From Candidatus Magasanikiibacteriota bacterium (GTDB taxonomy: Bacteria > Patescibacteriota > Patescibacteriia > Magasanikbacterales > GWA2-37-8), in the NCBI GenBank assembly GCA_030650025.1, contig JAUSEN010000009.1, positions 29,144 to 93,143 of the forward strand: DNA of 64,000 nt. The letters are read 5' to 3'. Below the pieces are notes generated by a model, which did not search any database, was not told the DNA's origin, and saw only the letters and a list, made by a program, of their open reading frames with translations. The position numbers and the translations under genes are program-made. Below, in pieces: positions 1,367 through 60,977 of the stretch (position 1 is its first letter; each line of letters starts with the position of its first letter).

Positions 1367-1628
1367 ACCATCTATTATTCCAAATCGTTATTGGTGTCTG
1401 CCAGTCTGTGTTTAAGAGTAAATACCAAGTCAGCCAGCCAATAATAGCCACGAATGCGAAGCATAATAGCGTTACCACGAAACTTGGTAAGGTAAAAGTG
1501 CCCGTATGTATAAGATGGCCAATACTAACAAATATTAGCGTGGCAAAAAGCACCACCCCGGCTAAGTAAATAAAGAAAAATGAATATAACGCCAGCGTAA
1601 TCATGTCTATAGTATACCACTTTACCAC
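1320..1628 (-). CDS. small membrane protein (YdbS-like)
   Basis: 102 aa with 3 hydrophobic segments; overlaps the downstream gene by 47 nt. Confidence 0.35.
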   Translation of the reverse strand: MVKWYTIDMITLALYSFFFIYLAGVVLFATLIFVSIGHLIHTGTFTLPSFVVTLLCFAFVAIIGWLTWYLLLNTDWQTPITIWNNRWFGTVFTTDQIFSPFK

Positions 1629-1693
1629 CTCGCCCTCAACTTTTTTGGTTAAGAACTTGATAAATAATTAGTATGTATGTAGGTAATGTATCT

Positions 1694-1762
1694 GTCATTC
1701 CCGCGAAAGCGGGAATCTAGAAATTATCAATAAAACTGGATTCCCGCTTTCGCGGGAATGAC
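1694..1762. repeat. Double palindrome made of two inverted copies of ATTCCC-GCGAAAGC-GGGAAT (a dRS3-like ATTCCC-N8-GGGAAT unit).
   Basis: gtcattcccgcgaaagcgggaatc ... gattcccgctttcgcgggaatgac. Each arm is itself a hairpin with a GAAA loop. The element is intergenic, between two minus-strand genes. Confidence 0.6.
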
Positions 1763-1787
1763 ATGGCAGTGTTTACTCACTAAACTA

Positions 1788-2417
1788 TCAGTAAATTTTT
1801 TTGTGAATAAAAACCGTGGCCTCGCCCCACTTGAGATTGATTTTAAAACGGCCAATAATGTCGTAATACCCCGAATGTAGAGATTGCGACACGGTGATTA
1901 CCAAACTCCCTGGCCGGAGCATGGTTAAACGGCGCTTCAGCATTTCCATCATGCGTTCGTCAAAACAAGTGGTAGATACCAGCACTACATCGGCCTCCGA
2001 AAAATCCGCCCAAAAAATATTATCTCGAATAAACAATACTTCCGCTGTTGTTTTATTAACAGCGGTTTGATCACGAGGCTCTTGAGCCATCTGCAAAACT
2101 AATTTTTTCCTGGCCACCTCCGCGGCTTGGTAGAGAGCGGGGAGCAGTTCTATTCCCACTGTTTTTTTAAAATTAGCTAGCAAGGCCGCTAAAATTACGG
2201 CCTTGCCCGTGCCCGCGCCGAGATCATAAAAATTTTTGCCAGCAGTTTCGCCGAGCGCGCTGACAATTGCCTGCATGGCCTCAAAATTTATTTCGCCATA
2301 AGTGAGGGACGAATTTCGCAGGTTTAACTTTTGGCGCTCGGTAGTAGAAATTTCTGTGCCGTTAACAGCGGCATAGATATTATTAAAAATTTTTTCTGCG
2401 ACCAACTCGTTTTTCAT
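1788..2417 (-). CDS. class I SAM-dependent methyltransferase
   Basis: Gly-rich motif I DLGAGTGK and an acidic motif II downstream. Length is 209 aa. Confidence 0.6.
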   Translation of the reverse strand: MKNELVAEKIFNNIYAAVNGTEISTTERQKLNLRNSSLTYGEINFEAMQAIVSALGETAGKNFYDLGAGTGKAVILAALLANFKKTVGIELLPALYQAAEVARKKLVLQMAQEPRDQTAVNKTTAEVLFIRDNIFWADFSEADVVLVSTTCFDERMMEMLKRRLTMLRPGSLVITVSQSLHSGYYDIIGRFKINLKWGEATVFIHKKIY

Positions 2418-2560
2418 ATCGCCACGTTAGTACAACATAAATTTATGATTTCTATAGTAGCAGGGGAGAGGGGAGGGCGTCAATTTAAAAAACAAAAAAG
2501 CCGTAAGAATAAAAAAACCGTTTTTAACGGCTAAAAATATTTTAAATTTCTAGAGCCCGG

Positions 2561-2591
2561 CCCCGGCGCGCTAATCGCTAGCGCGCCGGGG
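2561..2591. terminator. GC-rich hairpin terminator of the high-GC island A gene
   Basis: ccccggcgcgcta-atcgc-tagcgcgccgggg: a 13-bp perfect stem immediately downstream of the minus-strand gene that ends at 2606. Confidence 0.6.
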
Positions 2592-2605
2592 CTTAGGCAG
2601 TGAGC

Positions 2606-3121
2606 TCACTCGAGGTACTCCCTGATCTCGATCGTGGTGATCGAGGTTCTGGCGCGGAGTTTCTGCATGATGTCGTCTACGATCAGGTGGCCGTCACCCT
2701 CCCAGCTCGCCCGCCGCGCTGGCGTGAGGCTCTGCGTGTAGTCGGCCACCACCACGTCGTGCTCATCGTGGCCGGTGTAGCCGAGCCACGGGTCCGGGTC
2801 GCCCGGCGTGTCGCCGATCTCGCCCACGGCGCCATCGATGTCGAAGTGGACCTCGACTTCAGCCACCTCGGGCGATTCGGCCACGGCGTACCAGACGAAC
2901 AGGATGCCCTCCCCCCGGCGCTCCAGGATGCCGTAGCCGTGGGCGAAGGCGCGCGCGTAGCCCTGGCGCGTCGGGTGTTCGGCAGCGAAGGCCGCCTGGT
3001 GCTCCGCGATGAAGTGCCTCTGGTGGTAGGCGTAGTGGATCACCCCGGTGAGGAGGACGACCCCGGCGAGAGCCAGGACAGCGCCGCCTGCAAGCAGAAC
3101 CAGGAACCAGTTCTTTTTCAT
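2606..3121 (-). CDS. hypothetical membrane-anchored or secreted protein (high-GC island A)
   Basis: N-terminus MKKNWFLVLLAGGAVLALAGVVLL is signal- or anchor-like. SD gaggtaatcgATG is present. The gene is about 68% GC, against the low-GC surroundings. Confidence 0.45.
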   Translation of the reverse strand: MKKNWFLVLLAGGAVLALAGVVLLTGVIHYAYHQRHFIAEHQAAFAAEHPTRQGYARAFAHGYGILERRGEGILFVWYAVAESPEVAEVEVHFDIDGAVGEIGDTPGDPDPWLGYTGHDEHDVVVADYTQSLTPARRASWEGDGHLIVDDIMQKLRARTSITTIEIREYLE

Positions 3122-3321
3122 CGATTACCTCGAGTTGAGGGAGCAGCTTTGGCCGATCTAGGCGGCCACAGCTACTCCGGTTGTTGGTGTTCAGGTCCGC
3201 CAGCCATCAATTTAGGGCCAGCGCTGAAACGCTTCATCTTAACAAGTTTTAGGCGAGCCGTCAAGGTGGCGCGGGCGGGTAAAGCTAATTATACATATTG
3301 ATAACGACCACCTGGGGATTG

Positions 3322-6038: not shown

Positions 6039-6509
6039 TTAGTGTCGGAACAAGCCACCCATCCCATGCTTTAATTTCTCCCACCAGGTGTCTTTCGTAC
6101 GCAGCTCAACTACCCCGAGGATAAACAGAATTGTCGAAGTTAAGGCCGAGCCAACGCAGTATATGCAAACAGCTTTAATAACATAGAGCTGGAGATACAC
6201 AAACCACGCCGAAGCCAAAAAGCCGAGCGGCGTCAGAATGGCCGCGGCGGTGAGCCATTTTTTATTTTGGCTTTCCAAATACGCCACGCTTAAGATCAAG
6301 ACTGCTAAATAATAAATAGCCCCGAGTAACGCCACGGGGATCTTAAATATCAGGGCGTATTTACTGGTGGTAACTAATTCACAGCCTACGATTACGGAAC
6401 ACGGCGGTACCACCCCGCGATAATGCTCAACCGCGAGGTAGCTCGCGTCCAAAAATCCTAAGAAGCTAACCAGCAAAAAAATTATTCCTAACAGTTGACG
6501 ACGAAGCAT
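6039..6509 (-). CDS. vitamin K epoxide reductase (VKOR) family membrane protein
   Basis: 4-5 TM helices with a CIYC (CxxC) motif and loop cysteines. Adjacent to DsbA-like genes. Confidence 0.7.
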   Translation of the reverse strand: MLRRQLLGIIFLLVSFLGFLDASYLAVEHYRGVVPPCSVIVGCELVTTSKYALIFKIPVALLGAIYYLAVLILSVAYLESQNKKWLTAAAILTPLGFLASAWFVYLQLYVIKAVCIYCVGSALTSTILFILGVVELRTKDTWWEKLKHGMGGLFRH

Positions 6510-6512
6510 AAG

Positions 6513-7319
6513 CTATTTGTTAAGGGCTTCTTGGACAGCCGTGCGCAAATCATTAAACGAACGAAGTTCCAGTTTGCGGCCGTTTAAGAAAAATGATGGC
6601 GTAGAGTTAACGCCGCTCGCTTCGCCGCCGCGCAATTGCGCCAGCACCGTGCTTTTTACCTCGGCGCTAGTTAAATCTTTGTTAAACCGGTCCATGTTTA
6701 ACCCCAGCTCTTGAGCAAAGCCAGTAAACATAGCGCGGGCGTTGTTGCTGTTGCTCCACGCTTGTTGGGTAGCGAATAATTTGTCATGCATCTCCCAAAA
6801 TTTGCCCTGGCGCGCGGCCGCTTCGGCTACTTCGGCGCTCAATTGGCCAAATTTGTGCGAGGGGAGAGGAAAGTAACGATAAACGAACCTCACTTCTGTT
6901 TGGAACTCGCTAATCAGATCTTTCACAAACGGTTCGGCATTGGCGCAAGCTGGGCATTGAAAATCGCTATACTCTATAAAAGTAGTGGAGGCGGCTAAGT
7001 TGCCCAGAATATTTTCCGTATTCAGAACCGGCGGCAAAGCCGCCACGCTCTCCCCGCTGTTCAGCGGCGCGCTCGGCGCGTCTGGCAGGCTGGCGCTTAG
7101 TTTAATTAAACCATATAGCACTCCGGCTACAACTACTACGACCGTGCCCCATACCAGCGCGCGCTGTTTAGATTGGGATTTAACAGCCGCGTCTTTCCGT
7201 TCTAGTTTAGCCTGCCTTTTAAGTTCACGCCTTTCTTTTTTAGTCAGATTTTTGTTTTCAATATCCATATCCATAAAAAAGTTCAATATAAAATGCGCGG
7301 AGCGCTTTAGAGAGCTCAT
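6513..7319 (-). CDS. DsbA-like thioredoxin-fold oxidoreductase, membrane anchored
   Basis: CPAC active site (FQCPACANAEP), N-terminal basic region plus TM. Confidence 0.7.
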   Translation of the reverse strand: MSSLKRSAHFILNFFMDMDIENKNLTKKERRELKRQAKLERKDAAVKSQSKQRALVWGTVVVVVAGVLYGLIKLSASLPDAPSAPLNSGESVAALPPVLNTENILGNLAASTTFIEYSDFQCPACANAEPFVKDLISEFQTEVRFVYRYFPLPSHKFGQLSAEVAEAAARQGKFWEMHDKLFATQQAWSNSNNARAMFTGFAQELGLNMDRFNKDLTSAEVKSTVLAQLRGGEASGVNSTPSFFLNGRKLELRSFNDLRTAVQEALNK

Positions 7320-7358
7320 TGCCCCCGCTCTCCGCGCACTTCGCTTAACAGTTTAATA

Positions 7359-8123
7359 TTATAATTTAGCGTCAATAGCCGCTTTGATCTGTTCGTAGGG
7401 CACGGCTCCAGAGATCAATTGCGCGTTGCCGTCCTTATCCACCAAAAACGAACCCGGTGTGCCCTGCACGCCCGCGGAGGCGCCCGCGTTCATCTGGTCT
7501 GTTACGCGGCTGGCATATTTGCCTGAATCCAAACAGGTTTGGAACTTGCTTTGGTTAACACCGACTTCGGCGGCCAAGGCGCCTAATTTGTCGAGCGCGA
7601 ACCCGTAGCCATTTGAAGTGGTGCGTTCAAAGATTTTATCAGCATACGCGTAAAATGCTTTACTTCCACCCTGTTCGCCAATACATTCCGCGGCCTCGGC
7701 TTCTTTTTGAGCGTTAGCATGGAACGAGAGCGGGTAGTGGCGGAAGACGATTTTTACTTTTCCCGCGTAATTATCCCGCACTTGTTTTACTGTGTCATGG
7801 AAACGTTTGCAGAATGGGCATTCAAAGTCCGTATAAGCGATTAACGTGAGTGGGGCATTTTTATCTCCCAAAATATAGTCATCTTTAGAGAGCGGCGGCA
7901 CAGTGCCAGTCGGGGCCGCGTCGGGGGCGGCGGTGGGCGCTCCGGTGGTTGGTACTGCCTGGTAGATGTCAGCGCTTCGGCCTTTAAGCATTATTCCCAG
8001 TAGAATAAAAAATCCAATGGCGCACAAAACTAATAGGCCACCCACGAGCCCGACTACTAATGCCGCTTTGGGCGACAGTTGGTTAAAAAAGCTAGCTTTG
8101 TTTTGGTTCTGATTTTCTTCCAT
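7359..8123 (-). CDS. DsbA-like thioredoxin-fold oxidoreductase, membrane anchored
   Basis: CPFC active site (FECPFCKRFH) and an N-terminal TM. Confidence 0.7.
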   Translation of the reverse strand: MEENQNQNKASFFNQLSPKAALVVGLVGGLLVLCAIGFFILLGIMLKGRSADIYQAVPTTGAPTAAPDAAPTGTVPPLSKDDYILGDKNAPLTLIAYTDFECPFCKRFHDTVKQVRDNYAGKVKIVFRHYPLSFHANAQKEAEAAECIGEQGGSKAFYAYADKIFERTTSNGYGFALDKLGALAAEVGVNQSKFQTCLDSGKYASRVTDQMNAGASAGVQGTPGSFLVDKDGNAQLISGAVPYEQIKAAIDAKL

Positions 8124-8212
8124 ATTTATTATGGTTAGATTAAAAGTTAATTAATTTGTTTAATAATTATAGCGGGTTGTAATTAAGACGTCAATGGGGA
8201 AAACTTGTTATT

Positions 8213-10549
8213 TTACTTCATTATTCCGGTGCTAAAACGGGCGAATTCCCAGAATAAGGCCGAGAAGAATAATGTCATGATGACAGGCGCCGCGAGTGAC
8301 ACCCAATTGCGCTTCCCGGGTTTAAACCAGCGCAACGTCAGAGAATTTGTCACGACTGAGACAGATGACAAGGCCATGGCCAGGCCGGCGAGTTCGGGTT
8401 TAAGCACGAGACCTATTCCCGCGAAAACTCGGGCCGCGATGGGGATCCCAACCACATTGTAAAACAAAGCAAAAAACAAATTTTGTTTAATTTTGTTCAT
8501 GGTTTGTTTCGAGAGTCCAATCGCTCCGACTACATCACGGAGGTCATTTTTCATGACTACCACTCCGCCTGTTTCCATCGCCACATCAGTTCCCGCGCCC
8601 ATCGCGATGCCGAGGTCTGCCTGCGCCAAAGCCGGCGCGTCATTAATTCCGTCACCCACCATCCCGACAAACATTTTTTTCTCTTGCAATTTCTTAATTT
8701 CCTCTACTTTGCCTTCTGGTAAAACTCCGGCAATAATATTACGAATTCCGGCTTGCGCTGCTATTGCTGTAGCCGTGCGTTCGTTATCCCCAGTTATCAT
8801 GTACACTTCTATTCCCATTTTCTCTAATTGTAAGACGGCTTCGCGCGATGTAGTTTTTAAGGTGTCTGCTACGGCCACTAGTCCCAATATTTTATTTTCA
8901 TCAGACACAATCATTACCGTTTTCCCCTCGCGCTCAAGGTTTATAACTGTTGTTTCGTCAGTAAGGCTTAATTTTAAGTTTTGCATTTTAAGTAACGCCC
9001 GGTTGCCGATAAAATATTTTTTCTCTCCAATCCGGCCCGCTATCCCTTGCCCGGGTATGGCTGTAAACTCACTGACCGCGATCAGTTCAACTTTATCTTC
9101 TTTAGTTTTGTTTACAATCGCTTCAGCCAAGGGGTGCTCGGATAAATTTTCAATCGATCCGGCAATCTGCAAGATATTGTCGTTATTTATTTTTAGGATG
9201 TCTGTTACTACCGGCTTTCCATTAGTAAGCGTGCCGGTTTTATCAAATACCATGGCGTTTATTTTGCAGGCCATCTCAAGTGGTTCGCCGCCTTTCACTA
9301 GTATCCCATATTCCGCGCCCTTGCCTGTGCCGACCATGAGGGCGGTGGGTGTCGCGAGGCCGAGCGCGCAAGGGCAAGCGATCACGATTACCGCGGTAAA
9401 AGTCATGAGCGCGAACGTAAGGGTACTGCCCAATACGAAGTACCAGATTATAAAAGCCAGGGCCGCCGCTACTAGCACCGTTGGCACAAAATATTGTGAG
9501 ACCCGATCCGCGAAATCTTGAATGCGGGCGCGCGAGCCTTGAGCCTCTTCCACCAGCCGAATAATTTGCGCCAAAACAGTTTCGTTACCCACTTTGGTTA
9601 CTGTAAATTCTAAACTGCCGAGTTTGTTTATAGTCGCGCCAACCACGCTGTCGCCCACCTGTTTTTCTACGGGCAAACTCTCGCCCGAGATCATGGATTC
9701 GTCCACCGACGAATGCCCGCGCGCGACCTTGCCATCCACGGGAATTTTCTCGCCTGGTTTTACGAGTACCATGTCGCCCGGTATAACTTCGTTAATTGGA
9801 ATATCAAAAGTTTTTCCGTCCCGAATGACATGCGCGATTTTTGGTTGTAGGCCCATCAACTTTTTAATCGCTTCCGAAGTTTTCCCTTTGGTCCTCGCTT
9901 CTAACCATTTGCCCATTGTTACAAACGTGATCAAGAAAGCGGCAGTTTCAAAATATAATTCGGGGATTTTGGCTCCCGCCAGCCCCAGCACGCTTTCTTT
10001 ACTAATAGCGTAAACCAAGAAATTAACCACGCTGTAAATATAAGCCGTGGTGGTCCCAATGGCAATCAAGCTATCCATGCCAAACATCTTCATGCGGATA
10101 CTGCTCCAAGTGCCTTTGTAAAACCCTCTGCCTACTATAAATTGAACTGGCGTCGCGAGTATAAAAGACACGATGCCGACATAGGGGAGTAGAACTGCGC
10201 CTCCTGGCAACCAACCAAAATAATCTAGCATCATGAAGTAAAGCATCGGCGCGGATAAAACTGCGCTCCACGCGAACAGCTTGAAGTAGTGGGCGATTTC
10301 CCGGGCGCGTTTGTGGCTTTCATGTTCCGTGTCGCTCGTATCCACGATCTCCGCGCCATAACCGGCCTTTTTCACTGCTTCTATAATTTTTTTGGTGGTA
10401 ATTTTTGCTTCGTCAAATTCCACTCGCGCTTTTTCGTTCGCAAAATTAACATTAGAGTTATTTATGCCCTCTGTTTTGCTAAGCGCCTTTTCAATTAATT
10501 TGGCACAACTGGCGCAGTGCATGCCTGATATAGTCAAATCTGTTTTCAT
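8213..10549 (-). CDS. copA: copper-translocating P1B-type ATPase
   Basis: N-terminal HMA domain GMHCASCA, a CPC motif in TM6 (ACPCALG), DKTGTLT phosphorylation site and a GDGINDAP hinge. Length is 778 aa. Confidence 0.9.
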
Positions 10550-10550
10550 A

Positions 10551-11945
10551 TTATTTAATGATTATTTTTCCTCGGTACATGCCCATGGAGCATGAGAAGG
10601 GAATTTCGCCGCTTACGGGGGCAGTAAATTCAATAATATTCTCCCCGGCGTTTAAACTGCGGCTAATCCCCAGGCTCGGCACCACAACAGAGCTGGCACA
10701 GCTAAACTGGCTGGTAGAATTGATAATCCAGCGAATTTTAGTGCCGGCTTTAACTGTTAGTATATTTGGCGAATATCCTCCGGCTGTCTGCGTCATTCTC
10801 ACTTCTTGCACGCTGTTGGCGTTAGTTTCTTGAGCTTGGGCGGTGTTGGCATTTTTAAAGCCGCCGAATAGCAATAATTGGCCATTAGATACATTGTACC
10901 AACCGAGAATTATTACGGCGATGCCCGCGGCCGCGAAGAACACTCTCGCTTTGGCGCCTTTGAAGACAGACGACAACCCGCCAAGCGAGAGCAGACCCGG
11001 AGCCGTGCCGAGCGCGAATAGGCCCATGATCAGCGCTCCTTTGGCAAGGCTACCGGTAGAGACCGCGTAGAGTTGCATCGCCTGCGTAAACCCGCACGGC
11101 AAGAAAAAGCTGGCCGCTCCGGCGTATAGAGCTGACTGGTGGCTGTATTCCTTAATATCAGTCGACATTCCGAAGAACCGCGCGAGTGATTTGGGTAGTG
11201 TCAGAGAGCTATTTTTTAGTTTCGGGAATATTTCAATCAACTTCAGACCTAAAAATAGCATCACTAACCCGACAATTATGGTAAAAAATCCTAAAAAAGT
11301 CGGCGAGGGTTTGAGGGCCGAGCCCACGGCGCCAATTACGCCACCAAGTATCGTATAGCCGAGAATTCTGCCCGCGTTAAAATATAAATGCGGTCGGAAT
11401 TTCTGCAGGCGCGTCGCTTCGGGGTGGCGTTCGGCGTGGCGCGCCGAGAGCCCCAGCACTAGTCCGCCAACGAGCGCCATACAAGTGGAGACTCCGGCCA
11501 CGAGGCCAACGATTAGAGCAATACCAACGCCTGCCTCGGCGCCGGAGTTAACTGAATAATTTAAAATTCCGAGCATTTTCGCGAGCCCATACACCACCCA
11601 GAGCGCCGCCGCGCCGAGGATTAAGTATTCGTAGTCCTTATAATTTTTGGAGATCCAGGGCAAGGGGCCGCTCGTGCCCATTGTGTACCCGGCCGCCTCC
11701 ACGGCTTGTTTTAATTTGTCTTGTAAGGAAGGCTGATCGGCGTTCCCGGCGTCAGCCGAGCGCGCCGGTTCCTCGTACGCAATGTTTGCGACACCAGTTT
11801 TATAGTTGACGTTGACCTTTGACACGCCCGGAATCTTTTTAATTTCACCCTCAATCAGGAGTTCACAGCTTTTACAGTGCATGCCCCGGATATTGATATT
11901 ACAACTAGGCATATATTTGCTAATAATAACAAAATCGCTTCTCAC
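10551..11945 (-). CDS. HMA-domain membrane protein (DsbD_2/TauE-like permease fold) with a C-terminal cupredoxin-like domain; putative metal transporter.
   Basis: N-terminal HMA domain (GMHCKSCE), then a multi-TM core with an FFLPCGF motif, then a soluble beta-rich tail. Its start abuts the copA stop. Confidence 0.5.
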
Positions 11946-18599: not shown

Positions 18600-18630
18600 T
18601 GTGACCAAAAAATATTGTCCGTAAAATTTT

Positions 18631-18659
18631 GTAGGGACAGGGCATTGCCCTGTCCCTAC
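18631..18659. repeat. REP family-2 hairpin
   Basis: gtagggacagggcattgccctgtccctac, with the same leader ...aatattgtccgtaaaattttg as the 13841 copy. Confidence 0.65.
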
Positions 18660-30310: not shown

Positions 30311-30898
30311 ATGCTATATACAGCCAAAAATTACGACGCTCTCCTCGGCACGCCCGGGTTTAGCGACCAATTATTAAAAAATCATTTTACATTATATCAA
30401 GGGTACGTTACCAACGTAAATAAATTGTCCGAAATTTTAACGGCGATGTTAAACGATGGCCGTAGCAACACGCCGGAATTTGCCGAAACCAAACGCCGGT
30501 TTGGCTGGGAGTTTAACGGTATGCGCCTGCACGAACTGTACTTTGGCAATATGTCCAAAAACGGTTCAGAGCCAATAGCCAGTGGTTCAAAGTTGTACGA
30601 AAAAATAATCGCGGATTTTGGCTCCTTTGAGTCGTGGGAAAAAGATTTTAAAGCCGTGGGAATGATGCGCGGCATTGGCTGGGCGATTTTGTATCATGAT
30701 AAAGAAGCCGACCGCCTTTTTAACGTTTGGATTAATGAGCACGACGTGGGTCACTTTGCCGGTTGCGTTCCGCTTCTCGTTTTAGATGTTTTTGAACATG
30801 CCTTTATGCTGGACTATGGCACCAAACGGGCGGATTATATTACGGCGTTTATGAAGGCGATTGATTGGGGGGTTTCCGAGGGTAGATTGACAGCCTAG
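30311..30898 (+). CDS. sod: Fe/Mn-family superoxide dismutase
   Basis: Collinear with SodA/SodB: HFTLYQGYVTNVNKL (SodB HHQTYVTNLNNL) and LDVFEHAFMLDY (SodB VDVWEHAYYIDY), with His, Asp and His ligands retained. Confidence 0.8.
   Translation: MLYTAKNYDALLGTPGFSDQLLKNHFTLYQGYVTNVNKLSEILTAMLNDGRSNTPEFAETKRRFGWEFNGMRLHELYFGNMSKNGSEPIASGSKLYEKIIADFGSFESWEKDFKAVGMMRGIGWAILYHDKEADRLFNVWINEHDVGHFAGCVPLLVLDVFEHAFMLDYGTKRADYITAFMKAIDWGVSEGRLTA
30816..30898 (+). repeat. DR1: native sod 3' end. The last 27 codons are repeated twice downstream.
   Basis: atgctggactatggcaccaaacgggcggattatattacggcgtttatgaaggcgattgattggggggtttccgagggtagattgacagcctag. Confidence 0.8.
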
Positions 30899-30921
30899 CC
30901 AAGAATTGGTAGCATTGGTGT

Positions 30922-31209
30922 ATGACAAAAGCACTGCAGAATTTAAAAAAGCAAATTACCCCCACCTTGCGAAAATATTCGGTGGGACGGTCTTTTATTT
31001 TTGGCTCTACGGCTCGAGGCACGGCCAAAAAAACCAGCGATGTTGATCTAGTTGTTGATCTTCCAAAAAATGCCACTTTGCTGACTCTTATCTCTCTTCA
31101 GCAGGAGTTAGAAGATCGCCTCGGCCGTTCTTTCGACGTCACCACCTCTGCCGCGCTTTCACCGCGCCTGAAAAAAAATATCGCGCGTGATGCTGTTCGC
31201 GTGTTATGA
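30922..31209 (+). CDS. MNT-type nucleotidyltransferase (HepT-MNT antitoxin component)
   Basis: Minimal nucleotidyltransferase fold motifs GSTARG and DVDLVVDL. Length is 95 aa. Confidence 0.75.
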   Translation: MTKALQNLKKQITPTLRKYSVGRSFIFGSTARGTAKKTSDVDLVVDLPKNATLLTLISLQQELEDRLGRSFDVTTSAALSPRLKKNIARDAVRVL

Positions 31210-31538
31210 AAGATCAACAGGAATATATTGATCATATTTTAGCCAGCATCGCCGCGATAAAGACGTATGTGGAGCCGCACACTAAGCAATCATTTTTTAG
31301 AGATGCGCAAGCCCAAGACGCGGTAATCCGGCGGCTCGAAATTATTGGCGAAGCCGCCCGCCACTTGTCTGACGCGCTCACCAGCCGAACTTCGCATATA
31401 GAATGGCGAGCGGTAAAAGCAATGCGCAATTTTTTGATTCACGAATATTTTAATGTCGATCTGAATTTAGTTTGGAATGTGGCGCAAAAAGATTTGCCGG
31501 TGATGAAGAAAGTATTAAGTGAATTAAAAGGTATCTAA
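31206..31538 (+). CDS. HepT/DUF86 HEPN-domain toxin
   Basis: R-x4-HxY motif (RNFLIHEY) in the C-terminal helix. Overlaps the MNT gene by 4 nt (ATGA). Confidence 0.75.
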   Translation: MKDQQEYIDHILASIAAIKTYVEPHTKQSFFRDAQAQDAVIRRLEIIGEAARHLSDALTSRTSHIEWRAVKAMRNFLIHEYFNVDLNLVWNVAQKDLPVMKKVLSELKGI

Positions 31539-31542
31539 TTTT

Positions 31543-31632
31543 ATGCTTGACTATGGCACCAAGCGGGCCGATTATATTGAGGCGTTTATGAAAGCGATTG
31601 ATTGGGGGGTGGTAGAAAGTCGGTTAGAGTAA
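31543..31632 (+). repeat. DR2: diverged copy of the sod 3' end (about 85% identity).
   Basis: atgcttgactatggcaccaagcgggccgattatattgaggcgtttatgaaagcgattgattggggggtggtagaaagtcggttagagtaa, which translates to MLDYGTKRADYIEAFMKAIDWGV... Confidence 0.8.
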
Positions 31633-31640
31633 AAATTATT

Positions 31641-32342
31641 ATGGTAGAGACAAAAGATCCCGGGAGAAATGACGCATATTGGCCTCCAGGCCAACCAATC
31701 GAATACCCGTCCCAGCCAGCCACCGAGCCGGGGGAATTAAATATTGGATTGCCAAATACTACCGAGGACATTAGAAAATTGAAAAGTATTAATGGTATTC
31801 CCATTGATCAACTCGAACTTCGCATGCGGCCGTATGATCAAACCAAAGATTTTTTTACTCCGGTTGATCCCGCGCCTATTCCCGGAGCGGAGGAACATTT
31901 GCCTCGTTTCAGTCGGTCGCAGTATGGATTTTTAGGCGAGAAAGAGTCATTAATTGAAGTCTTAGCTGATGATAACGATGAAATCGGGGCTTATGGTATG
32001 ACTCACCAAAAAGTCGGGCGTTTATTATTTGATTTAATGGAGGCCGCAGGACATGGCACCACAGAATTTGCATGTCTTGGTAATAAAATTGTCCATGTTG
32101 CCGCGGGGTTTCCTAATGGTGTTCAGGATTCGCCTTTTGGCGATGGGGTAATGGTAAATGCTGGCGCTTTAAAATTTACTAATCAAACTACCGGGCGGAC
32201 TCTCTCCTTTGATCGTTTACTGCCGCATCTTATTTATCGCTATGGTTTTTATGAAGGGCACAGCACGCAGTACCGGCTTGAACCGAAAACGATTATGGAT
32301 TTTTTTGGAATAAAGAAAAAGGGAAAAGAGCCAAACAGTTGA
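31641..32342 (+). CDS. hypothetical protein (cassette 2)
   Basis: 233 aa from the internal ATG (MVETKDPG...). The first 13 codons of the tool ORF lie within the sod-tail repeat. Confidence 0.4.
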   Translation: MVETKDPGRNDAYWPPGQPIEYPSQPATEPGELNIGLPNTTEDIRKLKSINGIPIDQLELRMRPYDQTKDFFTPVDPAPIPGAEEHLPRFSRSQYGFLGEKESLIEVLADDNDEIGAYGMTHQKVGRLLFDLMEAAGHGTTEFACLGNKIVHVAAGFPNGVQDSPFGDGVMVNAGALKFTNQTTGRTLSFDRLLPHLIYRYGFYEGHSTQYRLEPKTIMDFFGIKKKGKEPNS

Positions 32343-32392
32343 TGGCGCTTTTTAAGGCGATTGATTGGGTGGTTTCCGAGGGAAGATTTTAA
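32341..32392 (+). repeat. DR3: third, partial copy of the sod 3' end.
   Basis: gatggcgctttttaaggcgattgattgggtggtttccgagggaagattttaa. Confidence 0.75.
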
Positions 32393-32437
32393 AATTTTCT
32401 ATGGTAGATGGGGAACGGGTATAAGTTTTAGTTTTTT

Positions 32438-32992
32438 ATGCGTCGGCCAAGTTCTAAAGAATTACTATTAGCCAGCACGTTGGCGGCGGCAGTTGGAGCC
32501 GACCACTATGGCCGCGGCCGGGCGGACAGTCCGCCGATAGCGGCATCAGCGCCATCTGCCAGCGAACCGGCGCCTAAACCGCCGGAGGTTTGTGGCGTGC
32601 CAGCGCCGTCTGCCGAGCCAGATTCCGAGCCGCGGCTGGCGTCAGTGTTGCCGCCGCCTTCGTTTGAGCGGCCAAAAAATCCCTCAGAAATACTTATGGA
32701 AAAAATACGATTGCTTAAACAATTAGTAAGCTGGGCGGTGCCGATTGATGATGTCCAGTCCCCGGGCGCGGCTAAGCCGAGCATTACCCAGCGGCAAGCG
32801 GCCGACCAAGAAATTTTAACGCTAACCAGGGACGCTCTGGAATTTACTTCGGCTAATAAACTTACAACGGACGATTGGATAGTGGCCGAATGGCGCGGCG
32901 TGGCGATAAACGCACACCTTAACCAGTTTCACCTCACGGGCGCCGAAATAGAAGCCGCTTTGCGGCGTTGGGATAGGAGAAATAAAAAATAA
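32438..32992 (+). CDS. hypothetical protein with Pro/Ala/Ser-rich N-terminal half
   Basis: 184 aa with a low-complexity GC-rich first 90 codons and a structured C-terminal half. Confidence 0.35.
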   Translation: MRRPSSKELLLASTLAAAVGADHYGRGRADSPPIAASAPSASEPAPKPPEVCGVPAPSAEPDSEPRLASVLPPPSFERPKNPSEILMEKIRLLKQLVSWAVPIDDVQSPGAAKPSITQRQAADQEILTLTRDALEFTSANKLTTDDWIVAEWRGVAINAHLNQFHLTGAEIEAALRRWDRRNKK

Positions 32993-42022: not shown

Positions 42023-42043
42023 GATTCTAAATTAAAGAAAATC

Positions 42044-42128
42044 ACGTAGAGACGTTGCACTGCAACGTCTCTTTGCACTGCAACGTCTCTTTGCACTGCA
42101 ACGTCTCTTTGCACTGCAACGTCTCTTT
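42044..42128. repeat. REP family-1 array: four tandem 18-nt units forming GAGACGTTGCA-c-TGCAACGTCTC hairpins.
   Basis: cacgtagagacgttgcactgcaacgtctctttgcactgcaacgtctcttt..., immediately 5' of the RAYT-1 start. Confidence 0.8.
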
Positions 42129-42135
42129 AAAAATT

Positions 42136-42780
42136 ATGATAGAAAAATTTAAAAATAAATATCGAATACCATCGGCACGTTTGCCTGATTGGGATTACAG
42201 CAATGCCGGTTTATATTTTGTAACAATTTGCACAAAAAATAGATTTTGTTATTTTGGCGATATTATTAAAAATAAGATGTGGTTATCTAAAATGGGTAAA
42301 ATTGCACAGCAATATTGGTCGGAAATTCCCAATCATTTTTCACATGTCTATCTGGATGAATATGTAATAATGCCTAATCATATTCACGGTATTATCAGAA
42401 TCACGGAAAACAATGTAAATCATAATCACGTAGAGACGTTGCACTGCAACGTCTCTTTGCACTGCAACGTCTCCGAAACAACATCGCCAAAAACGCCAGA
42501 GACGTTGCACTGCAACGTCTCTACGCAAACGATGATGCAGAAATCGCTAATGTCAAAAATTTCGCCTCGGACTGGTTCGCTAGGCACCATTATTCGTTCG
42601 TTTAAATCAATTTTTACCAGAACAATCAATCAAGACCCTACATTGCAATATTTTGGTTGGCAAGAACGCTACTACGAATCGATCATCCGCGATCAAAAAT
42701 CTCTGGAACACATTCGCGGATACATTCGTGATAATCCAAAGAATTGGGAAAAAGATGAATTATTCCCGCATATTAAATAA
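42136..42780 (+). CDS. IS200/IS605-family Y1 (HuH) transposase, REP-associated (RAYT-1)
   Basis: DWDYSNAGLYFVTICTKNR and HuH YVIMPNHIHGII, with YY in ...FGWQERYYESIIRD... at the presumptive catalytic Tyr. Start refined to MIEKF...; the first 27 tool-ORF codons are REP translation. Confidence 0.7.
   Translation: MIEKFKNKYRIPSARLPDWDYSNAGLYFVTICTKNRFCYFGDIIKNKMWLSKMGKIAQQYWSEIPNHFSHVYLDEYVIMPNHIHGIIRITENNVNHNHVETLHCNVSLHCNVSETTSPKTPETLHCNVSTQTMMQKSLMSKISPRTGSLGTIIRSFKSIFTRTINQDPTLQYFGWQERYYESIIRDQKSLEHIRGYIRDNPKNWEKDELFPHIK
42428..42523 (+). repeat. REP family-1 copies (2.5 units) inserted in-frame inside RAYT-1.
   Basis: cgtagagacgttgcactgcaacgtctctttgcactgcaacgtctcc ... cagagacgttgcactgcaacgtctcta, encoding ETLHCNVSLHCNVS...ETLHCNVST. 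Confidence 0.75.
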
Positions 42781-60392: not shown

Positions 60393-60977
60393 ATGCCAGT
60401 TCGGCCAGCTCGTAAATTGAATCGTTGGCACAAATGGGATTATAGTAATTTTGGGTTCTATTTTGTAACAATATGCACGCAAGGTCGCCAGCAGTATTTT
60501 GGTGAAATCAGAAACGGTTTAAAGATTTTAAACAAATGCGGGAAAATTGTCGAAAATTTTTTGGGAGAAATCGAAGGCCATTTTAAAAATGTATATCTGG
60601 ATGAATTTGTGGTGATGCCAAACCACGTGCATGCGATAATTTTGGTTGATAATCAGGTGAATGGAAAAAGAACACAAACAATTGTAGGGAACGTATTCGC
60701 GCAAACGCGCGTAGGGACAGGGCAGTGCCCTGTCCCTACAAGGCGAAATAGCGCTAGATATGGGTTGTTATCTAAAATAATAAATGGTTTAAAAAACGTC
60801 GTCACAAAAGAGATCAGAAAACAATTTCGTTATAATGAATTCGGCTGGCAGCGGTCATTTCACGATCACATCATTCGCACTCCCACAGAATTAAACCGTG
60901 TTCGGCAATATATTGCGGCTAATCCAGAGAATTGGGAAGAGGACAGAAATAACCCAAAAAATTTTAAAAAATTATGA
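60393..60977 (+). CDS. IS200/IS605-family Y1 transposase homologue, REP-associated (RAYT-2), possibly catalytically degenerate.
   Basis: HKWDYSNFGFYFVTICTQGR and HuH FVVMPNHVHAII. The presumptive catalytic YY of RAYT-1 is F-H here (FGWQRSFHDHIIRT). Overlaps ruvA by 4 nt. Confidence 0.65.
   Translation: MPVRPARKLNRWHKWDYSNFGFYFVTICTQGRQQYFGEIRNGLKILNKCGKIVENFLGEIEGHFKNVYLDEFVVMPNHVHAIILVDNQVNGKRTQTIVGNVFAQTRVGTGQCPVPTRRNSARYGLLSKIINGLKNVVTKEIRKQFRYNEFGWQRSFHDHIIRTPTELNRVRQYIAANPENWEEDRNNPKNFKKL
60711..60739. repeat. REP family-2 hairpin inserted in-frame inside RAYT-2 (encodes RVGTGQCPVPT).
   Basis: gtagggacagggcagtgccctgtccctac, a 1-nt variant of the 18631 copy. A partial gtagggaac...gcgcaaacgcgc sits just upstream. 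Confidence 0.7.

Follow-up and report, generated by a model that had tools for sequence, protein, structure and literature searches.

Displaced copies of the sod 3' end mark repeated tail-replacing insertions in a Candidatus Magasanikiibacteriota genome

Results and Discussion

Two further copies of the sod 3' end lie behind the sod gene

We analyzed a 64,000-nucleotide (nt) stretch of the genome of an uncultured Candidatus Magasanikiibacteriota bacterium, a member of the Patescibacteria/CPR (contig JAUSEN010000009.1, positions 29,144 to 93,143 of the forward strand; referred to as the window, with window positions counted from its first letter), which carries a short array behind the gene (sod) for an Fe/Mn-family superoxide dismutase (SOD). 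The SOD protein is 100% identical to an NCBI protein from a Ca. Magasanikbacteria metagenome-assembled genome. The 3' end of sod (30803-30898) was found to be present twice more in direct orientation (31540-31632 and 32342-32392), once behind a toxin-antitoxin gene pair and once behind a gene for a protein of 233 amino acids (aa), termed u233. The features of the array are as follows.

30311..30898, + strand: complete Fe/Mn-family superoxide dismutase gene, 195 aa, anchor of the array (Pfam Sod_Fe_C, 3e-26)
30803..30898, + strand: tail copy 1, the live sod tail, codons 165-195 plus stop, bearing the lineage-specific Ser189
30922..31538, + strand: module 1, MntA-like nucleotidyltransferase antitoxin gene (30922-31209) and HepT RNase toxin gene (31206-31538), with a 4-nt overlap
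31540..31632, + strand: tail copy 2, codons 165-194 plus stop, FMLDYGTKRADYIEAFMKAIDWGVVESRLE and stop, intact and consensus-like, 2 nt after the HepT stop
31633..31648, + strand: box 3' of the copy 2 stop, AAATTATTATGGTAGA, which includes the ATG of the 233-aa open reading frame (ORF)
31641..32342, + strand: module 2, u233, 233-aa protein of a rare uncharacterised family
32342..32392, + strand: tail copy 3, codons 178-193 plus stop, MALFKAIDWVVSEGRF and stop, apparently a decayed relic, with Ser189
32393..32408, + strand: box 3' of the copy 3 stop, AATTTTCTATGGTAGA, followed by a 7-codon stub (MVDGERV and stop)

The match between the tail copies is far beyond chance. By blastn within the window, 30803-30873 aligned with 31540-31610 over 71 nt at 92% identity (E=7e-22), and 30844-30888 aligned with 32344-32388 over 45 nt at 89% identity (E=7e-9); past 31610, the homologous frame of copy 2 runs on, strongly diverged, to the stop at 31632. 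The 17-mer GCGATTGATTGGGGGGT is exact at 30857 and 31594, has one mismatch at 32357, is confined to the three copies when zero or one mismatch is allowed, and reached the same count in none of 100 shuffles. The run identical across all three copies is 13 nt, and pairwise runs are 16-17 nt. Gene-tail direct repeats other than those of sod were not found in the 64 kb of the window. The ATG of copy 3 overlaps the TGA stop of the u233 ORF. A first-pass annotation of the window had reported the three copies and had named unrelated low-complexity matches as the finding that would overturn them. The alignments revealed true sod 3' ends, although the repeat begins at codon 165 (30803) and not at 30816 as first placed.

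The same annotation had read module 1 as an MNT-HepT toxin-antitoxin pair, MNT being the minimal nucleotidyltransferase, and the domain matches agree with this assignment (NTP_transf_2 PF01909/PF18765 and PF01934; NF047752 and NF047751 matched below their cut-offs). As in type VII MntA-HepT systems, the genes for a minimal nucleotidyltransferase and a HepT/HEPN RNase are adjacent and overlap. Module 2 likewise proved to be what had been described, an unknown 233-aa protein with a stop that overlaps the start of copy 3. No match to u233 was detected in Pfam, NCBIfam or PADLOC, and its AlphaFold2 (AF2) model (pLDDT 78) had no significant neighbour in the PDB.

Assembly error was weighed as a source of the repeats. 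A chimera stringing strain variants of the locus together would be in keeping with the metagenome origin of the sequence, with the variation of this interval between relatives, and with SRR13727527 being the sole run known to hold the sequence. By contrast, a Logan contig of 13,008 bp (L001) from this run, which may also be the source of the window assembly, is 100% identical across the locus. The copies differ by 8-11% and only 3-6 nt are in common at the joints, which leaves no k-mer bridge for false joins. We consider a chimera hardly credible. Exact-protein look-ups of SOD, HepT and u184, a protein encoded downstream of copy 3, gave only the same 13-kb Logan contig and thus no strain variants.

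The tail copies derive from different sod alleles

Copy 2 differs from the live tail by 8 synonymous and 4 nonsynonymous codons in 30, and where the change is nonsynonymous, copy 2 has a residue frequent in the family (E178 and V189, for example). Because the differences are mostly synonymous and the residues family-common, copy 2 evolved within a functional sod allele, and by its codons it appears to be the still-intact tail of a closely related one. The differences between copies 1 and 2 are unevenly spread, with mismatches at 6 of 69 nt through codon 187 and at 12 of the 21 nt that follow (Fisher p=1e-5), such that identity is 91% up to codon 187 and 43% beyond. The pattern marks a recombination breakpoint immediately after GATTGGGGGGT, at codon 187/188, and a break this sharp is the signature that a crossover inside the tail would leave.

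Compared to the live tail, copy 3 has five nonsynonymous changes and one synonymous change. Among these is F180L, which alters a residue invariant in the family alignment. The changes suggest relaxed constraint, and copy 3 looks decayed. Residue 189 is Val in 100, Ala in 16 and Ser in only one of 120 homologues, the one being the protein of the window itself. As Ser189 is common to copy 3 and the live gene, the old tail is likely to have belonged to the lineage of the window; copy 3 may be a relic of the lineage's own tail or may have exchanged sequence with the live tail. The copies stem from different alleles, copy 2 differing from copy 1 mainly at synonymous sites, which bears out the earlier proposal that their divergence reflects separate events or separate donors.

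We also considered local decay, by which an ancestor had two or three tandem sod genes, each with a gene downstream, and later deletions left only the distal tails. Such a history would explain why copy 2 resembles part of a once-functional gene. Repeated acquisition of sod is plausible, with the family found at 63-74% aa identity across the candidate phyla radiation (CPR), DPANN, Methanoperedens, Nitrospirota, Acidobacteriota and others, and one locus (L110) has a sod pseudogene fragment one gene downstream of a full sod. The sharp mosaic of copy 2 (91% to codon 187, 43% after) is not expected by this route, however. Two independent deletions, each ending 0-2 nt from the stop of the upstream gene, would be needed, and tandem full-length sod genes were found in none of the relatives examined. 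We judge local decay to be quite improbable.

The interval behind sod is a flexible slot in relatives

For comparison, 160 sod loci were fetched from reference genomes and metagenomes, together with contigs of the closest SOD relatives. The backbone order in Magasanikbacteria was found to be rpoB, rpoC, (MIP), sod, CapA, (YebC), RuvC, SpoU/TrmH, a gene for a 240-aa protein, ornithine decarboxylase, deoxyhypusine synthase and arginase. An empty slot was seen only in more distant relatives (L165-170 and L174), where an intrinsic terminator comes directly after sod and CapA is the next gene. Sites of this kind had been named as a check on the array, as had alternative gene content, which was also detected. 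The four closest sod genes (window, L162, L163 and L164) are nearly equidistant at 76-79% nt identity. In L164 a HicB-like antitoxin gene comes right after the sod stop, in L163 a terminator is followed by a 118-aa gene on the opposite strand, and in L175 a 635-aa gene is found at the post-sod place. Judged by gene content, the interval after sod is a fast-turnover flexible slot in the Magasanikbacteria clade, often with toxin-antitoxin genes.

Past copy 3, the window continues with the following features.

32438..32992, + strand: u184, Pro/Ala-rich protein of 184 aa, a variable-slot gene present in L162 (57% aa identity) and absent from L175, L165 and L174
32995..36538, + strand: u567 and a Memo-CapA fusion, conserved neighbours that bound the slot, outside the array, in the same order in L175
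36603..38500, + strand: AbiEi/AbiEii pair, an accessory insertion of its own between Memo-CapA and RuvC, without repeats on either side

These genes had been grouped as a further accessory block of the array. This grouping did not hold for u567 and Memo-CapA, which are conserved neighbours. The order in L175 is a gene related to that for a 358-aa protein (u358) in the window, sod, a u567 homologue (47% aa), the Memo-CapA fusion (52% aa) and RuvC, and a CapA homologue lies within about 1 kb after sod in six others (L003, L004, L013, L082, L089 and L165). Nor did it hold for AbiE, an independent insertion, as RuvC directly follows Memo-CapA in L175 with no AbiE between. A homologue search with u184 returned the query itself as the sole match.

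The closest relative lacks the expected repeat

L162 and the window are collinear through rpoC, sod, MNT and HepT, as far as an ATG that both have shortly after the HepT stop, and nt identity is uniform along this stretch (rpoC 78%, sod 76%, MNT 76%, HepT 79%). Past the shared ATG, L162 passes straight into the sequence upstream of its u184 homologue (GAACGTGT...) and has no copy of the sod tail. The window counterpart of this sequence (GAACGGGT...) resumes only past copy 3, its box and the stub. Compared to L162, the extra block of the window is thus 31546-32412 (copy 2, u233, copy 3 and box), with an ATG at either side (31543-31545 and 32407-32409).

A recombinase acting on the repeats would shift one module and one repeat and leave a single attachment (att) copy behind. 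Here the difference spans copy 2, u233 and copy 3 together and hence is not an exchange between two att sites. The comparison is consistent with either of two events: a microhomology deletion may have removed the entire block from L162, or an ATG join may have added it to the window. A similarity of the HepT 3' end of L162 to copy 3 was rejected as chance, as this is AT-rich coding sequence orthologous to the HepT of the window.

A separate difference was noted upstream of sod, where L162 has a 23S_rRNA_IVP/bAvd-like four-helix-bundle gene (L162 2999-3397) between MIP and sod and the window has the unrelated 358-aa gene; thus, the 5' flank of sod is variable too.

A predicted promoter straddles the sod stop

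The boxes behind the tails were compared with the sequence that follows live sod genes. Behind their stops, copies 2 and 3 agree at 13 of 17 nt, with TATGGTAGA exact in both and complete divergence beyond, and only TGGTAG of this box is matched after the stop of copy 1. The sequence at that point belongs to the following feature.

30887..30915, + strand: promoter-like site TTGACA-17-TAGCAT preceded by TG, 10 of 12 matches, upstream of MNT

The -35 hexamer TTGACA of this site is encoded by the last sod codons (R-L-T), and its -10 is the TGGTAG box just past the stop. A similar site, TTGACA-17-TATTAT with 11 of 12 matches, is found at the same place upstream of MNT-HepT in L162 (3996-4024). The predicted promoter at 30887-30915, with the -10 region TGGTAGCAT (30907-30915), probably drives MNT-HepT. 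Live sod genes of L164, L104 and L085 were found to have (T/A)TATGGTA(G/A)nnT a few nt past the stop, and in L085 a perfect TTGACA lies 17 nt upstream of this box. The extended -10 consensus of Gram-positive promoters is TGnTAnnnT.

The TATGGTAG box (TGGTAG) had been suggested as part of a crossover core. This candidate was rejected, as live sod genes (L164, L104, L085) bear TGnTAnnnT there and TTGACA lies 17 nt upstream in the window and L162. The box looks more like the extended -10 element of a promoter that straddles the sod stop than like a crossover core. The boxes after copies 2 and 3 have neither the final T nor a good -35 and look like promoter relics.

A shared motif had also been proposed as the core. 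GCGATTGATTGGG codes for the conserved A-I-D-W and is identical in the distant sod genes L005, L082 and L164. Coding for these residues explains the identity, and the conservation of the motif does not by itself point to a recombination core. What stands of the proposal is that the copy 1/copy 2 breakpoint falls right after this motif.

A dedicated integration system was not detected

The first-pass annotation had read the array as the product of serial site-specific integration with replacement tails. In one form of this explanation, a recombinase encoded elsewhere, or by a helper element, targets the sod 3' end and inserts small circular modules with replacement tails. The core would be GCGATTGATTGGG(G/T)GGT and/or the TATGGTAGA box, the array would have grown by tandem accretion, and integron cassettes, pdif modules and integrase-less satellites of tycheposon-type islands would be its possible analogues. 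As with integrase-type elements, each module lies between direct repeats of the target-gene 3' end. The modules have tight boundaries, the right-hand end is common to copies 2 and 3, the breakpoint between copies 1 and 2 is sharp and comes right after the block identical in all copies, and copy 2 past the breakpoint is a fully functional-looking replacement tail. Empty sites occur in relatives, and accretion that displaces older elements has been documented for tRNA-targeting elements (10.1101/2020.12.28.424599).

The search for the machinery of such a system gave a different picture. Pfam was run on the main non-overlapping ORFs of at least 120 aa and on the ORFs of the locus, several syntenic housekeeping ORFs being identified only by homology to relatives. 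By this approach, Phage_integrase, Resolvase and Recombinase domains were not detected in the scanned ORFs of the window, in agreement with the earlier note of no visible integrase, and no recombinase was found within or beside the modules. An IntI integrase with attI was not found among these ORFs, and no dif-like 28-bp site was recognised. The only HUH enzymes in the window are two RAYT-like genes (42055 and 60393), which are 11 and 29 kb away and have their own unrelated REP-like repeats. The copies themselves showed no hairpin or attC-like folding on either strand (single-strand z-scores of -0.1 to +0.6), and hairpins of the kind expected for IS200/IS605 or RAYT activity were not found at the module ends.

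Recurrent use of the site was not observed either. A second sod tail was absent from the ~119 other sod loci whose downstream sequence exceeded 1.5 kb, L110 having only an internal sod fragment, and sod-tail sequence was not found on viral contigs by protein and DNA pattern searches. Homologues of u233 were found in three unrelated contexts (Trp-repressor-like gene/DnaB; ABC transporter and SmpB; 6PGD/FtsY), none of them near sod or a sod fragment, and u233 was rejected as a sod-associated gene on this basis. The literature search retrieved nothing relevant on sod as an integration site or on integrative elements of CPR bacteria.

L110 was examined as a candidate second array. Its locus (1416-3228) consists of a full sod with an N-terminal extension (236 aa), a cytidylate-kinase-like/BON gene and an internal sod fragment of codons 127-184 that is 95% identical with one frameshift. 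This candidate was rejected, as the fragment is internal with sharp ends on both sides and is a pseudogene relic of an unrelated lineage, not a displaced tail.

Further points against the site-specific explanation are that L162 has the same MNT-HepT in place with no repeat after it, that copies 2 and 3 begin at different sod codons (165 and 178), and that Ser189 in copies 1 and 3 is not predicted by a strict reciprocal model unless the elements circulate among very close relatives only. We consider this explanation possible but rather doubtful. A narrower version, in which a recombinase supplied in trans integrates circles of one gene each at a core within the final codons of sod in CPR genomes, each circle with a replacement tail and a stop-straddling promoter but no integrase in cis, seems unlikely to us; were it correct, sod would be an attI-like platform for defence and toxin-antitoxin genes. 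Of the earlier reading, the true sod ends, the different alleles and the empty sites stand, whereas a dedicated site-specific system is not supported. There is no proof of dedicated cassette integration, and what the locus documents is repeated tail-replacing insertion at one hotspot.

General recombination between related strains as an explanation for the array

The explanation we favor, and to which we give an even chance of being right, is that related strains with different genes in the slot swapped DNA by general recombination and not by an integrase, with pairing in sod and with the other end joined by microhomology. The window genome would have stacked at least two slot contents behind sod. 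Each event would be a single-crossover (Campbell-type) or one-ended recombination within the last ~30 sod codons, and the donors would be related strains with other genes in the same slot, whose DNA bore a cargo gene behind a sod 3' end and the short promoter region that follows it. The tail so acquired would become the working end of sod, and the former tail would be displaced 3' of the cargo as a dead fragment. Copy 3 would be the oldest relic, the lineage's own decayed tail, and copy 2 would be the tail of a related allele. Joining would be by RecA-type pairing in sod together with microhomology at the other end, with no dedicated integrase. What the data show directly are the repeated tails and their allelic differences, the breakpoint, and a slot that varies between relatives and is empty in some; the order of these events, the source of the DNA and the enzyme are what we infer from the array.

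Nested single-crossover insertions fit the presence of a complete sod, tails that are 5'-truncated behind each cargo, a mosaic copy 2 and a decayed copy 3. In addition, with the predicted promoter reaching across the sod stop, a slot gene transferred together with its promoter would naturally bring sod tail sequence along. RecA, RuvA and RuvC are encoded in the window. The joints have 3-6 nt in common, ATG (possibly TTTATG) at HepT/copy 2 and TTGA at u233/copy 3, and both look like microhomology joints.

Several observations weigh against general recombination. The joints are tight, with copy 2 starting 2 nt after the HepT stop and copy 3 overlapping the u233 stop, and copies 2 and 3 lose similarity at one and the same point, after TATGGTAGA; such tight, common ends look more like defined cassette boundaries than like random illegitimate joints. 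The identical run beside the breakpoint, at 13 nt (16-17 nt pairwise), is short for a RecA-dependent crossover, and duplication rather than replacement needs a circular donor or unequal exchange. A donor genome with sod followed by u233 was not found, the u233 homologues being those in the three contexts given above, and the array is seen in one genome only.

Comparison to known systems

Homology-facilitated illegitimate recombination during natural transformation has been described for Acinetobacter, Streptococcus pneumoniae and Pseudomonas stutzeri. The array would resemble such events in its one-sided sod anchor and putative 3-6 nt microhomology joint (ATG, TTGA), and in the addition of foreign genes beside a conserved gene with no mobile-element enzyme taking part. 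By contrast, the classical events replace or delete recipient DNA, whereas part of the anchor is duplicated in the window. The term itself occurs in PMC6382021 and PMC8116780.

A second comparison is to elements that accrete at the 3' ends of tRNA and other genes. In the tycheposon islands of Prochlorococcus, earlier elements and their partial tRNA copies are displaced into the island as further elements arrive (10.1101/2020.12.28.424599). In outline, the sources on this type of accretion describe incoming DNA that restores the gene, with integrase-less remnants also occurring (10.1101/2020.12.28.424599; PMC8409611). Like tycheposons and the SGI1-type islands at the trmE 3' end, the window has direct repeats of the target tail, a restored gene and displaced older insertions. 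Unlike them, its modules are only 0.6-0.7 kb, are single transcription units and have no integrase or fragment of one, the target is sod in a CPR genome, and the closest relative (L162) has no repeat where one is expected after the same module.

The array also recalls Rhs and CdiA loci, whose layout is usually explained by recombination within the conserved gene region, by which a new tip is acquired and the former one ends up downstream (PMC3150448). In both cases cargo lies behind a full-length gene, and behind the cargo come 5'-truncated pieces of that gene's 3' end whose C-termini vary. The tails in the window differ in being ordinary Sod_Fe_C ends of a housekeeping gene that has no toxin tip, the cargo is MntA/HepT and an orphan protein rather than immunity genes, and there is no sign that silent tails are reused.

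Integron arrays and pdif (XerC/D) modules share with the window single-gene modules in one orientation, often toxin-antitoxin genes, with a repeated site between them and a promoter upstream. The window differs from these in having no IntI, no folded attC-like site and no recognised dif-like 28-bp site, and its repeat is a piece of a coding gene. By the features tested, the locus belongs neither with integrons or pdif arrays nor with IS200/RAYT products. It is a tail-replacing insertion with displaced target ends, and is unusual in its sod target, its CPR genome and its very small modules.

Little is known of mobile elements in CPR bacteria, or of the routes by which their very small, streamlined genomes acquire accessory genes. 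Behind one conserved gene, the locus preserves a record of two or more gene gains in succession, for which the displaced tails serve as timestamps. If general recombination is responsible, a flexible slot can fill up with toxin-antitoxin and orphan genes with no mobile element involved; if a recombinase is responsible, the array would be a new cassette platform built on a housekeeping gene. In either case, the codon 187/188 breakpoint and the stop-straddling promoter are features for which other genomes can be screened.

Additional observations

The compact SOD family of 190-200 aa to which the window protein belongs (L002-L161) was found at 63-74% aa identity across CPR, DPANN and other archaea (Methanoperedens, Thermoplasmata), Nitrospirota, Acidobacteriota, Chloroflexota and Brocadia. 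This spread suggests frequent horizontal transfer of sod itself.

Beside one u233 homologue (P0122, on L171), a Trp-repressor-like gene is flanked by two copies of a 35-nt palindrome (1245-1279 and 1843-1877; 91%, GCATAACTACCAnnCACTGTAGnGTGGTAGTTAT). The pair resembles operator sites, and the same layout was found in L172 and L173.

The first RAYT-like ORF (42040-42780) lies between ornithine decarboxylase and deoxyhypusine synthase, which are adjacent genes in relatives. Perfect 18-nt tandem/palindromic units (TTGCACTGCAACGTCTCT) were found at its 5' end (42055-42128) and inside it (42439-42473 and 42498-42525). The second RAYT-like ORF (60393-60977) has 44 nt in common with the first (42190-42233 versus 60435-60478) and holds a 29-nt palindrome (60711-60739) that is also found at 18629-18659.

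Elsewhere in the window, on the reverse strand at 6039-11945, genes for VKOR, two DsbA-like thioredoxins, a copper P-type ATPase and an HMA-DsbD-cupredoxin fusion form a cluster for copper handling and disulfide chemistry.

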